The notes beneath the pieces were generated by a model, which was given only the letters and a program-made list of their open reading frames with translations, did no database searches and was not told the DNA's origin. This document shows, one piece after another, positions 1-4,396 of a DNA stretch of 64,000 nt; the first letter of the stretch is position 1, and each line of letters opens with the position of its first letter. The stretch is from Alphaproteobacteria bacterium (GTDB lineage Bacteria; Pseudomonadota; Alphaproteobacteria; GCA-2731375), in assembly GCA_965225945.1 (NCBI GenBank), contig CBDDBZ010000028.1:1-64000 (forward strand), in the 5' to 3' direction. Position numbers and translations under genes: made by a program.

Positions 1-147
1 CCATCCAGCGGTTCTGCCTCCGAACAATCGAAACCGCTGAACAGCAGGCGAAAATCATGCGAACTTCGGAATCGGGACACTAGGTAGCACGATCGTTACA
101 ATTCTTGTTGGCGCCCCACATCGAATCATTGTATATCGGCGCCCTTC

Positions 148-606
148 ATGCACACTATATCATTCCGACAGTTCATCGAATTTCTAAACGGCCGGGGGCC
201 ACGCTTTATATGTGTCGGCATCCTGCCGAATGAACTCGTGACACATCTGGGAACCAAGGCTGCGGAAATTCATCTGCAATACGATTACGCACGCAAACTT
301 TGGGAACGGCACAACTTGACCCCTCAGCACTACTACGCAATTGGCCGCTCATTAGAGCACGGGGAATGCAGGGCCGACAAAGGCGATTTGGTCTTCTTCT
401 ACGATGATAGCGCGCTTCTACGGACTCGGTTCAAACTGGTGATCAAGACAACAGTATTGAGAAACGAAACGTGGGTGAAAACATTTCATCGCCTAAATGC
501 CTTTGAGTTCAAGAGGCAGTCCGCCAAGTGTGAACTCATACGCCCAGCCCCTAAAAGCCCTTCTGACGGAGCCATGAGGCTTGGCCCCGCCAGAAGAATC
601 GACTAG
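148..606 (+). CDS. Stand-alone PBECR2-like (Barnase-EndoU-ColicinE5/D-RelE superfamily) putative ribonuclease
   Basis: 152-aa low-GC ORF. The pattern VGILPNELVTHLG...KLWERH.LT...Y...LEHGE...LVFF...FKLVIKTT...ETWVKTFHRL resembles the PBECR2 domain usually fused to phage MuF proteins. Recognised by eye, no HMM run. Confidence 0.6.
   Translation: MHTISFRQFIEFLNGRGPRFICVGILPNELVTHLGTKAAEIHLQYDYARKLWERHNLTPQHYYAIGRSLEHGECRADKGDLVFFYDDSALLRTRFKLVIKTTVLRNETWVKTFHRLNAFEFKRQSAKCELIRPAPKSPSDGAMRLGPARRID
553..598 (-). terminator. Putative intrinsic terminator of the candidate sRNA
   Basis: 15-bp stem 560-574/582-596, fully paired only on the minus strand (two G-U pairs), followed by UUUU (556-553). 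Confidence 0.5.
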
Positions 607-703
607 TCACGACCGAGGGACTCCTAGGGCTCCCTCTACTGCACCTGCCACATGAAGCCTCAAGCGGCAGAGCGACGGCCAGGAGATTCACCGAGTCTGT
701 CGC
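553..703 (-). ncRNA. Candidate structured small RNA, convergent with and overlapping the 3' end of the nuclease gene
   Basis: Closing stem 610-613/699-702 and three hairpins (615-620/631-636, 644-651/664-671, 676-679/690-693). Loops 621-626 and 680-685 are complementary. A/C appositions on + become G-U pairs on -. Bounded by a promoter (710-738) and a terminator (553-598). Confidence 0.55.
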
Positions 704-709
704 CCCACA

Positions 710-738
710 AGATTAGACGATTCGTCGCGCAGAATCAA
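710..738 (-). promoter_or_regulatory. Sigma70-like promoter for the candidate sRNA
   Basis: Minus strand TTGATT (738-733), 17-nt spacer, TAATCT (715-710). Predicted start near 703, exactly at the edge of the structured element. Confidence 0.6.
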
Positions 739-2600: not shown

Positions 2601-4396
2601 CTAGCGGCGGCCGAACAGCCGCTCGATGTCGGCGAGCTTCAGTTCGATATAGGTCGGGCGGCCGTGGTTGCACTGGCCGGCGTTGGGGGTCCGCTCCATG
2701 TCGCGCAGCAGGGCGTTCATCTCCTCGACACTCAACTGCCGCCCGGCCCTGACCGAGGCGTGACACGCCATGGTCGCTACGACATCGTCGAGGCGCTCCT
2801 TCAGTTCCAGCGCGGCGCCGATTTCCGCCAACTCGTCGGCGAGGTCCCTGACCAGGCCCCGGACCTCGGTCCGCCCCAGCGCCGCCGGCACCTCGCGCAC
2901 CACCACCGCGCCCTCGCCGAAGGCTTCCAGCACCAGGCCCAGTTCGGCCAGCTCGCCGGCCCGGGCAGCCAGCCGGTCGACCGCCGCCGGGTCCAGTTCC
3001 ACCACCTCCGGCAGCAGCAGCATCTGGCGGGCGACGCCGCGGGCGCCGAGTTCGGCCTTCAGCTTTTCCATGACGATGCGCTCGTGCGCCGCGTGCTGGT
3101 CGACGATCACCACCCCGTCCCGGGTCTGGGCGATCACATAGGTCGCATGCAGCTGGGCCCGCGCCGCGCCCAGGGGATGGTCTTGCTCGGCCACGGCCAC
3201 GGCCTCGAGGGGAGCTGCCGAGGGTGCCGCCGTGCCGGCGAGCCGCCAAGCCTCGCCCGACGGCGGCGCCTGGTAGGCGGCCGCCGTCTCGGCCAGGCCG
3301 CTCGCCACTCGCCCGCCATGGCGGGCCGTGTTCCAGGGCAGCGAGGCGCTCGCGCGGACCGCGGCAAGCGCCGCCTCCGAGACCGTGCTCGCCGAGCGAT
3401 GGCCCGCCGCGGCCAGCGCGTGGCGGAGGGCGGAGACGATGAGCCCGCGGACCTCGCCCGCCTCGCGGAACCGCACCTCCGCCTTGGCCGGGTGCACGTT
3501 CACGTCGACCTCGCCGGCCGGCAGATCGAGATAGAGCACGACGGCGGCATGCCGGTCGCGCGCCAGCACGTCGCTATAGGCGCCCCGGATGGCGCCCCCC
3601 AGCAGGCGGTCGCGCACGGCACGGCCGTTGACGAAGAGATATTGTTGCAGCGTGTTCGCCCGGTTGTATGTCGGCAGGGCGACGTAACCGGAGAGCCGGA
3701 GCGCGCCCCGCTCGGCCCGAATCGGAATGGCGTTGTCGGCAAAGCCCCGGCCCAGCACACCGGCGATCCGCTCCAGCCGCCGCGCCTCGCCTTCGCCCGG
3801 CGCCGGCGGCAGCTTGACCAGCGAGCGGGCGCCGTCACCCAGCGCGAAGCCGACGTCGGGCCGCGCGAGCGCCAGTCGGCGCACCGTGTCGGTCGCGTGG
3901 TTGAACTCGGTGCGGGCGGTCTTGAGGAACTTGAGGCGGGCCGGAATGGCGCGAAACAGCTCGCGCACCTCGATTCGGGTGCCGGCGGAATGCGCCGCCG
4001 GGCGGCCCGGCCGCAAGGTGCCGTGCTCGACCTCCAGGCGCCAAGCGTGCGCGTCCTCTCGGCGCCGGCTGGTGATGGCGAGGCGGCTCACGCCTGCGAT
4101 CGCGGGCAGCGCCTCGCCCCGGAAGCCGAGCCAGCGGATGTCCAGCAGGTCGTCGTCGGGAAGCTTAGAGGTGGCATGGCGCTCGAGCGCCAGCGCCATC
4201 TCGTCGGGTCCCATGCCATCGCCGTCGTCGTCGACTTGGATCAGCTCCCGGCCGCCGTCGACCAGCAGGGCCTCGACATGGCGCGCGCCGGCGTCGAGCG
4301 CGTTCTCCACCAGTTCCTTCAAGGCGCTGGCCGGACGCTCGATCACCTCGCCGGCGGCGATCCGGTTGATGGTAGCCTCGGGGAGCCGCCGGATGC

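Follow-up and report, generated by a model that had tools for sequence, protein, structure and literature searches.

The window analyzed here, i.e., the first 64 kb of contig CBDDBZ010000028.1 within the 6.27-Mb draft genome of an alphaproteobacterium (assembly GCA_965225945.1), carries near its left end an open reading frame (ORF) at 148–606 on the plus strand and, facing it tail-to-tail, a structured RNA at 601–711 on the minus strand. The ORF encodes a putative RNase of the PBECR-like type, a type known from the C-terminal domains of the phage minor head protein MuF (MuF-C). The RNA is a divergent member of a pseudoknotted family, of which 146 instances were collected (66 genome and 80 viral loci). 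As far as sequence comparison can tell, this family is new, as it has no entry in Rfam 15 and no description was found in the literature. We propose that the gene and the RNA form a two-part cassette of phage origin in which the RNA is the partner of the nuclease, most likely one that neutralizes it as an immunity factor or antitoxin. We give this proposal, including its weaker form in which the RNA is simply a partner, an even chance of being correct.

An earlier note, made from the letters of the window alone, had described a lone PBECR2-like nuclease gene facing a minus-strand promoter, a fold of about 95 nt, and a terminator. The ORF and all three minus-strand elements were recovered at the positions it had given. 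Its central suggestion, an independently transcribed convergent RNA coupled to the nuclease, was borne out by covariation, by signs of the RNA strand, and by adjacency counts over the whole family; its PBECR2 label was not.

A family of pseudoknotted RNAs

Comparison of the DNA behind the stand-alone nuclease genes of the window and of two further genomes (G404 and G726) revealed a shared element with compensatory changes. The search pattern, 28 IUPAC letters with 19 specified bases, matched at least 118 places in genome contigs, compared with about 4 by a rough chance estimate, and 95 places in IMG/VR viral contigs. The whole motif was found in 66 of the 80 genome loci that were fetched, the other 14 being chance matches, and in all 80 fetched viral loci (62–104 bits). 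A covariance model based on viral sequences only confirmed the 66 genome loci at 52–115 bits.

The conserved RNA is about 100 nt long and consists of four helices and a pseudoknot: P1 closes the structure, P4 is short, P3 is a variable hairpin, and P2 is a hairpin whose loop pairs with that of P4 to form the pseudoknot. It is a single unit with no tandem repeats and no variable single-stranded segment fit to serve as a guide, and its unpaired junction nucleotides are conserved across phyla. In the alignment of the 66 genome sequences, 93.1% of cells pair, versus 36–49% when the partners are slid by 1–3 columns; there are 419 cells with compensatory changes (71–107 after sliding), and the covariation score is 0.554 (0.08–0.12 after sliding). 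The 72 distinct viral sequences yield 93.8% (37–48% slid), 374 cells (51–80), and a score of 0.505 (0.05–0.10), figures that somewhat favor the structure because the viral alignment was fitted to the model. None of 500 shuffles matched the observed value in the 66-sequence set, and none of 500 did so in the viral set. The pseudoknot pair 31–119, e.g., is G-C in 39 and C-G in 26 of the 66 sequences.

Sequences with the pseudoknot CUCCC/GGGAG mostly have an extra hairpin in the P2 loop, and those with CUGCC/GGCAG mostly have none; the RNA seems to have two structural subtypes. At one locus from Acetobacteraceae (L127:1785–2025), two RNA copies stand about 35 nt apart on opposite strands (1785–1888, plus, 88.7 bits; 1923–2025, minus, 63 bits), with no adjoining nuclease gene.

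The Rfam search that the earlier note had proposed as a check yielded no family match. For positions 1–1200 of the window, the Rfam 15 matches at E ≤ 10 were all microRNA or snoRNA rows at chance level, and the core at 601–711 had none; the row on the terminator hairpin at 560–596 was mir-3158, at 17.7 bits against a gathering score of 97. No match was obtained for two further loci (L023 and L035) at E ≤ 1 or for 12 motif loci at the gathering score. A full-text literature search, with subscription journals and supplements outside its scope, found no paper on the RNA. Comparison of two RNA instances by blastn with cultured phage genomes gave no match, and with plasmids one.

RNA strand and transcription signals

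Read in the orientation opposite to the nuclease gene, the helices contain many more G-U than A-C combinations, 95:22 over 29 pairs in the genome set and 114:30 in the viral set. This excess assigns the RNA to the opposite strand, since on the gene strand the two counts would be exchanged. Promoter-like sites were defined as sigma-70-like sites with at least 8 of 12 consensus letters and a −10 box ending a few bases before P1; they precede the RNA at 21 of 68 genome-set loci and 34 of 67 viral loci, compared with 6.5 and 3.6% in mononucleotide shuffles. The −35 box of the window copy, TTGATT, reappears in five other loci of the family. A column-wise information scan upstream of the RNA gave no signal because the spacing varies, and it was replaced by the shuffle-checked scan. 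Downstream of the RNA, read in its own sense, a hairpin with a T-rich tail is present at 26 of 65 genome and 18 of 64 viral loci, and in the gene sense at only 6 of 65 and 3 of 64, respectively. Three independent signs, i.e., the G-U excess, the promoters, and the terminators, thus indicate that the RNA lies opposite the nuclease gene, as in the minus-strand placement of the earlier note.

Such an arrangement might be that of a cis-antisense, type I-like regulator, whose 3′ part would base-pair with the nuclease or MuF mRNA at its 3′ end, or with the late transcript at the F–G junction, and thereby cause cleavage or prevent expression in lysogens. The tail-to-tail geometry suits it, and so do two details: the terminator hairpin of the window overlaps approximately the last 13 codons of the ORF, and in MuF fusions the RNA abuts the stop codon, so that a late transcript running into gpG carries the full complement of the RNA. 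Antisense pairing, however, needs neither a conserved sequence nor a pseudoknot, yet the family has covarying helices and junctions that are conserved from phylum to phylum. Moreover, the structured core lies outside the coding region, and RNA-only copies have no such mRNA to pair with. We consider antisense control rather improbable.

Linkage of the RNA to PBECR-like genes

An ORF was taken as adjoining if it matched the family profile at E ≤ 1e-3 and ended within approximately 120 nt of the RNA 3′ side. Starting from the RNA, an adjoining PBECR-like ORF was found at 31 of 66 genome and 55 of 80 viral loci, always tail-to-tail, and at none of the 14 chance pattern loci. Starting from the protein, the RNA was found at 10 of the 19 testable loci identified by protein search alone, one further locus lying at a contig end and not counted; such a motif downstream of homologs was what the earlier note had proposed to look for. 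Most adjoining genes of the genome set are stand-alone (24 of 33 PBECR-like ORFs are shorter than 200 aa by stop-to-stop length), and most linked genes on viral contigs are MuF fusions of about 400 aa. Stand-alone cassettes outside phages keep exactly the nuclease domain and the RNA, and nothing else of the head module. The same geometry is seen across Alpha-, Beta-, and Gammaproteobacteria, Desulfobacterota, and others.

The absence of a protein partner, which had been noticed in the window, extends to the family: no other conserved ORF was found beside the RNA or upstream of the stand-alone genes (66 and 23 loci). A second protein family was also sought beside the RNA-only loci, and none was found, the candidate ORFs looking spurious.

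Several observations weigh against a partnership of the RNA and the nuclease, and the weak points of the window copy, described below, are to be counted with them. The RNA has no adjoining PBECR-like gene at 35 of 66 genome loci (at one of these, the gene is 1.5 kb away). Four of the five RNA-only genomes that were checked contain no PBECR-like gene anywhere, and hence the RNA cannot depend on a resident protein. Reciprocally, 9 of 19 PBECR-like genes have no detectable RNA. Neither phage Mu nor phage VW-6B, in both of which the F and G genes overlap, has a covariance-model match at E ≤ 0.01. Finally, the linkage could in part result from the shared descent of one phage module. As to other cultured phages, B23, with a related MuF, also has no match at this threshold, and SuMu has a weak one (21.2 bits, E 2.5e-4) at the expected position and strand. 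The MuF-C domain of Mu itself is called inactive in the available text of Iyer et al. (2017, PMC5512222).

Neighbors of the RNA-only copies include genes for the Mu gene I protein, an integrase, a methylase or restriction enzyme, a photolyase, and a LexA-like repressor, as well as tRNA 3′ ends. Two copies (L110:262–420 and L120:1810–1870) directly follow apparent tRNA 3′ ends with the T-arm and a CCA-like sequence, and a further one (L062) lies about 160 nt downstream of an integrase gene; the RNA is often located at the edge of integrated elements. On plasmid pKE1446-1 of Komagataeibacter europaeus, an RNA-only copy (L265:3990–4092, 83 bits) lies near an Imm45 gene and a hemagglutinin-repeat fragment; the annotated hypothetical gene at 4055–4276 that overlaps it may be a mis-call.

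These copies could also belong to an independent small RNA (sRNA) of phages and mobile elements, a “moron” with unrelated targets, whose linkage to the nuclease was inherited from an insertion at the F–G junction. That the RNA has a promoter and a terminator to itself and runs against the late operon suits a moron, and the variety of RNA-only settings, the RNA-only genomes without the protein, and the nuclease genes without the RNA all agree with it. It does not account for the non-phage cassettes that retain precisely the nuclease domain and the RNA, or for a geometry that is invariant from Alphaproteobacteria to Desulfobacterota. Besides, junction nucleotides conserved across phyla point to one binding partner rather than to changing base-pairing targets. 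We regard this alternative as unlikely, albeit one to be taken seriously.

The tight linkage in viral contigs is also compatible with the RNA being a substrate, cofactor, or cargo, which the PBECR domain would process or would carry on MuF into the capsid and the next host. In the available text of Iyer et al. (2017, PMC5512222), PBECR domains are proposed to be delivered by the virion and the inactive MuF-C of Mu to bind RNA. On the other hand, RNA-only genomes exist, transcription against the late operon suggests expression while the late genes are silent, and the RNA offers no variable single-stranded segment for a guide role. A substrate or cargo role appears quite improbable to us.

Sequence and fold of the nuclease

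The ORF at 148–606 (+) starts with ATG and encodes a stand-alone putative RNase of 152 aa, assigned to the PBECR-like group (BECR fold, MuF-C type) from its homologs, an AlphaFold model, and structure searches. The earlier description of a lone low-GC ORF holds, with a GC content of about 50% from position 1 to approximately 900 and about 70% beyond.

Searches with the ORF against Pfam, PHROGs, NCBIfam, and PADLOC gave nothing at E ≤ 10. A word-index protein search returned only the ORF itself, and a profile search of PDB sequences returned nothing. A phmmer search of 1.84 billion cluster representatives identified 99 relatives at E ≤ 1e-3, 20 of them at E ≤ 1e-10, the closest being 45% identical (E 1.3e-30). 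Nearly all are stand-alone proteins of 130–146 aa that align with residues 5–135 of the window protein; hence, residues 136–152 are a non-conserved tail. The position of the tail coincides exactly with that of the terminator hairpin, which its codons read through.

The alignment of the ORF with 82 of the 99 relatives (17 short fragments were left out) has near-invariant K50, H55, G72, and K100 and the motifs YAxKxxxKH and WVxTFHR. The window protein has K50, H55, K100, T112, and R115. Among 83 distinct RNA-linked domains, H55 is kept in 78, K100 in 79, Ser or Thr at position 112 in 80, and Arg or Lys at position 115 in 74.

AlphaFold produced a useless model from the single sequence (pLDDT 35) and a confident one with the alignment (pLDDT 93.8, pTM 0.85). 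A Foldseek search of viral models (BFVD) with the latter gave 14 matches at E ≤ 1e-3 (TMq about 0.6), namely, MuF C-terminal domain proteins, “nuclease” proteins, and polyvalent proteins. Foldseek against PDB found none at E ≤ 1e-3, with BrnT, RelE, and CdiA-CT among the weak rows. A PDB-wide structural aligner placed CdiA-CT of NC101 first (Z 6.6, root-mean-square deviation 3.5, 83 aligned residues), followed by BrnT (6.3), a Salmonella toxin (6.3), colicin D (5.0), and RelE (4.3), and also listed further CdiA-CTs, colicin E5, and YoeB. A single Z below 8 is weak when taken alone; the BECR assignment follows from the consistency of the list, as 15 of the 16 top rows are BECR/RelE-type toxins (Z 6.6–3.8). 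The residues conserved in the PBECR superfamily are a helix His and a C-terminal-strand Ser or Thr, according to the available text of Iyer et al. (2017, PMC5512222). Their counterparts in the model are H55 in the helix at 45–54/55 and T112 in the strand at 108–116. The modeled structure thus gives the ORF the BECR fold, as had been surmised by eye, and membership of the PBECR superfamily, and its product is predicted to be a metal-independent endoRNase.

The position within the superfamily is less direct. ESM-Atlas neighbors of the protein are labeled PBECR2, PBECR3, or MuF_C (score 0.92, 193 shared features), and none of the 83 aligned proteins matches a PBECR model of Pfam at E ≤ 0.01. Distant relatives reach PBECR3 (PF18812) with 62.8 bits (L017) and 48.7 bits (L018) at a cut-off of 30, and two others stay below it (L013, 23.7; L014, 17.6 bits); the PBECR3 link of the ORF, itself without a match, is transitive through such relatives. 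The earlier label PBECR2 (PF18810) was rejected, as the ORF has no Pfam match at E ≤ 10. PBECR2 appears only once, at 15.3 bits (E 0.024) against a cut-off of 27.1, in a distant relative that scores 62.8 bits with PBECR3. By these scores, the window protein appears nearer to PBECR3 than to PBECR2.

Distribution and origin of the domain

Of 401 genomes sampled across the phylum and searched with the family profile, 10 have the domain, that of the window among them. At the nine other loci, it is always the C-terminal part of a long open frame, in eight of them, as well as in P0096, with an N-terminal Phage_Mu_F domain (MuF, PF04233). These MuF fusions have a Mu-type portal gene on one side and a gpG-type virion morphogenesis gene on the other. 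In the window, the gene is stand-alone, the MuF N-terminal domain being absent from the polypeptide, and it is the only PBECR-like gene of its genome. Three of 32 other genomes of the same order have the domain, in two cases as a stand-alone gene within a small islet of low GC, and a class-wide sample added eight further genomes with stand-alone and fused forms. Overall, the gene is present in about 2% of the sampled genomes. A related-locus search over genome and metagenome contigs starting from the protein alignment returned no relatives, and the locus contexts were gathered instead by the genome profile search and the DNA pattern. Judging from domain architecture and gene order, the module is not peculiar to this island and derives from the MuF-to-gpG junction of Mu-like head modules.

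Three individual loci deserve mention. The fusion at L016:46–1902 combines MuF and a PBECR-like C-terminus, with intein-splicing and pretoxin-HINT matches between them, both below the Pfam cut-offs; the RNA is absent from this locus. At L037:4584–5398 (G706), the PBECR-like gene is split in two frames, apparently by a frameshift, and the RNA behind it scores 64.3 bits. At L023:1151–2135 (G404), the nuclease–RNA cassette shares its low-GC islet with a gene for a SocA/Panacea-domain antitoxin, which is overlapped by an ORF of 211 aa without a Pfam match; these two are probably a separate toxin-antitoxin pair.

Proposed role of the RNA

In the explanation that we favor, the ORF at 148–606 would be a freed copy of the C-terminal PBECR-type domain of the minor head protein MuF of Mu-like phages, with a putative catalytic set of a helix His (H55), a Lys (K100), and a last-strand Thr and Arg (T112 and R115). 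An RNA of about 100–150 nt would be transcribed from its own promoter on the opposite strand and end with a hairpin that adjoins the nuclease gene at its 3′ end or reaches into it. By a logic resembling that of type III toxin-antitoxin systems, it would bind and block the nuclease. Cells or mobile elements carrying the RNA would be protected from the enzyme, and the RNA-only copies would be orphan immunity genes.

We infer a neutralizing role for four reasons. Firstly, the RNA occupies the place that the immunity gene has in other MuF toxin systems. Secondly, the pair persists when the rest of the phage is lost. Thirdly, the RNA-only copies fit orphan immunity genes. Fourthly, a promoter of its own, opposed to the late operon, allows the RNA to be expressed while that operon is off. 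A more specific scenario, which we put forward tentatively and hold to be somewhat short of probable, is that Mu-like phages deliver an active MuF-borne RNase into cells and that the convergent RNA blocks it as an RNA immunity factor. Prophages would then use the RNA both for self-protection and for superinfection immunity, and cassettes such as that of the window would represent a new class of toxin/RNA-antitoxin modules acting in addiction or abortive infection.

What gives the finding its interest is that a conserved, covarying, pseudoknotted RNA stands where an immunity gene is expected and stays with the domain outside the phage, which makes the question of MuF C-terminal toxicity accessible to simple toxicity, rescue, and binding assays. 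It also brings to light a widespread structured RNA that is missing from Rfam 15. Should the RNA neutralize the enzyme, the pairing of a toxin with an RNA antitoxin would gain both a new kind of toxin fold and a new arrangement of the genes. The immunity reading, if true, would provide the first RNA-based immunity to a polymorphic-toxin-like effector and the first function for a proteobacterial MuF C-terminal domain. If the RNA does not neutralize the nuclease, it would still be an abundant phage-borne sRNA set against a Mu-like late operon.

The RNA copy of the window

All five helices of the family can form in the window copy, by way of compensatory differences. Read by hand on the minus strand, they are P1 (703–699/613–609), P4 (693–691/678–676), the pseudoknot (685–681/625–621), P3 (670–664/651–645), and P2 (636–631/620–615). 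The first covariance model, with the window among its 66 seeds, found 601–711 (−) at 31.9 bits as the only match in the genome. The viral-only model also ranks 601–711 (−) first in the 6.27 Mb, directly behind the sole PBECR-like gene, at a score of just 19.2 bits (E 0.25 genome-wide and 0.0026 in the window). The junction letters of this copy are changed and its P4 loop is two bases shorter, which makes it a divergent member of the family; the protein beside it is divergent as well. Of the fold of about 95 nt in the earlier note (703–609), the membership in a covarying RNA family stands, and stability on its own does not, as the segment folds no better than shuffles (z −1.14; 24 of 200 shuffles fold as well). 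It is the comparison with the family, rather than the single sequence, that lifts the window RNA above chance.

The candidate promoter (710–738, minus strand) consists of TTGATT (738–733), a 17-nt spacer, and TAATCT (715–710), and its −10 box ends 6 nt before P1, where the family promoters stand. It agrees with the sigma-70 consensus in 7 of 12 positions and was not listed by the promoter scan. The putative RNA 3′ end is a terminator-like element (553–596, minus strand), i.e., a 14-bp hairpin at 596–560 followed by GGC and UUUU (556–553). The hairpin stands where the family terminators do and overlaps codons 138–150 of the ORF, and its two G-U pairs form only on the minus strand. Its tract of only four U fails the T-run rule of the terminator scanner.

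Metatranscriptome contigs from two studies cover the region: X12 extends over 475–1300 and X14 over 522–1300, and a 178-nt contig of X18 is exactly 522–699. X14 and X18 both stop at 522, and X19, from the same sample as X18, does not contain the 522–699 piece. Such RNA-library contigs are strandless and carry no transcript ends or levels, they may derive from DNA, and their depth is low, so that the uncovered segment 89–160 is uninformative. The cover of the RNA region is accordingly a hint only and, being unstranded, belongs with the weak points of this copy.

This copy may be decaying, with an insertion sequence (IS) lying 65 nt upstream of the ORF. Taken to the extreme, the window would have no functional module at all, only a decaying remnant, or else the conserved element would be a DNA site for recombination or packaging. 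The weak RNA copy, the neighboring IS, the read-through tail of the ORF, and the absence of the islet from 32 related genomes speak for this. Conversely, the ORF is intact with its conserved residues, and compensatory differences preserve all five helices. With a DNA site, neither would G-U outnumber A-C by 4:1 on one strand nor would a pseudoknot covary. The RNA-library contigs over 522–699 are a further, weak point against decay. We consider both forms of this explanation very improbable.

Genomic setting

Bases 1–83 (+) of the window are the 3′ end of a multicopy IS, including the end of its transposase ORF of 392 aa, and have 27 further matches in the genome at 96–100% identity. In one such copy (L002), the repeat closes an ORF at 405–1583 with DDE_3 and helix-turn-helix domains, i.e., the transposase. 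Because the contig, and with it the window, begins inside an IS copy, the assembly to the left of the nuclease gene is missing. The only promoter-like site listed in 1–1200 (0.4 expected from shuffles) is GGGACA-17-TACAAT at 74–102 (+), with 9 of 12 consensus letters. It spans the IS end and points at the ORF, which it could drive, and it may be a hybrid promoter.

The right flank contains, on the minus strand, a gene for a class IV aminotransferase (933–1910) and, beyond it, endonuclease III-like and mutL-like ORFs, recognized by eye from their translations. DNA comparison of the islet at 84–932 with the 32 other genomes of the order gave nothing beyond one 34-nt match at chance level; two of these genomes are from the same genus, and the aminotransferase gene has other neighbors there. 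One base of the window sequence, at 885, is missing from the RNA-library contigs of runs X12 and X14; at this non-coding position, it is a strain difference or an assembly error.

Comparison with known systems

In type III toxin-antitoxin (TA) systems (ToxIN, CptIN, TenpIN), a pseudoknotted RNA antitoxin is encoded as tandem repeats upstream in the toxin operon. The cassette described here would similarly pair an endoRNase with a pseudoknotted RNA rather than a protein, it is carried by mobile elements, and orphan or decoy RNAs are conceivable in both cases. In contrast, its RNA is single-copy, downstream, and convergent, with its own promoter-like and terminator-like signals, which bears out the earlier remark that the architecture is unlike that of type III systems. 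Also, the toxin would have a BECR fold instead of the ToxN/AbiQ type, and it has no PADLOC, Pfam, or NCBIfam match.

In the type I TA system txpA/RatA, a convergent antisense RNA overlaps the 3′ end of the toxin gene. Here too, a convergent small RNA would end in or at the 3′ end of the toxin gene, but the gene product is a 15-kDa enzyme and not a small membrane peptide, and the conserved part of the RNA is structured and does not overlap the gene.

Colicin D/ImmD, CdiA-CT/CdiI, and RelE/RelB provide the best structural matches for the nuclease and the expectation of metal-independent RNA cleavage, although the Z-scores are only 4–6.6 and the identities 6–19%. The inhibitors ImmD, CdiI, and RelB are proteins encoded beside the toxin, whereas no such gene is conserved here.

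The PBECR/MuF-C families (PF18809–PF18812, PF18819) share with the nuclease the BECR fold, the His of the N-terminal helix, and the Ser or Thr of the last strand, and they are found both at the C-terminus of MuF within Mu-like head modules and as independent proteins. The available text of Iyer et al. (2017, PMC5512222) predicts that phages deliver PBECR and MuF-C domains as RNases or RNA binders. The window protein and the 82 scanned relatives differ in matching no PBECR model of Pfam, and an RNA partner is not mentioned in the available text of that study. The same applies to the accessible parts of a 2026 bioRxiv classification of BECR proteins (10.64898/2026.08.28.747851), of Jamet et al. 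(2017, PMC5576092), and of a meeting report (PMC11806420).

MuF polymorphic toxins of temperate phages combine a MuF N-terminus with a variable C-terminal effector, as set out in the available text of Jamet et al. (2017, PMC5576092); an example given in the accessible part of the meeting report (PMC11806420) is MuF-RelA_SpoT of phage SPNA45. For the proteobacterial MuF extension Ct_MAD, with which our domain is likely identical, the available text of Jamet et al. (2017, PMC5576092) leaves toxicity open and states that a toxin would need an immunity factor. The systems agree in having a MuF-linked C-terminal effector, with self-protection expected just downstream; they differ in that, instead of a conserved ORF, the downstream position is held here by an RNA gene on the opposite strand.

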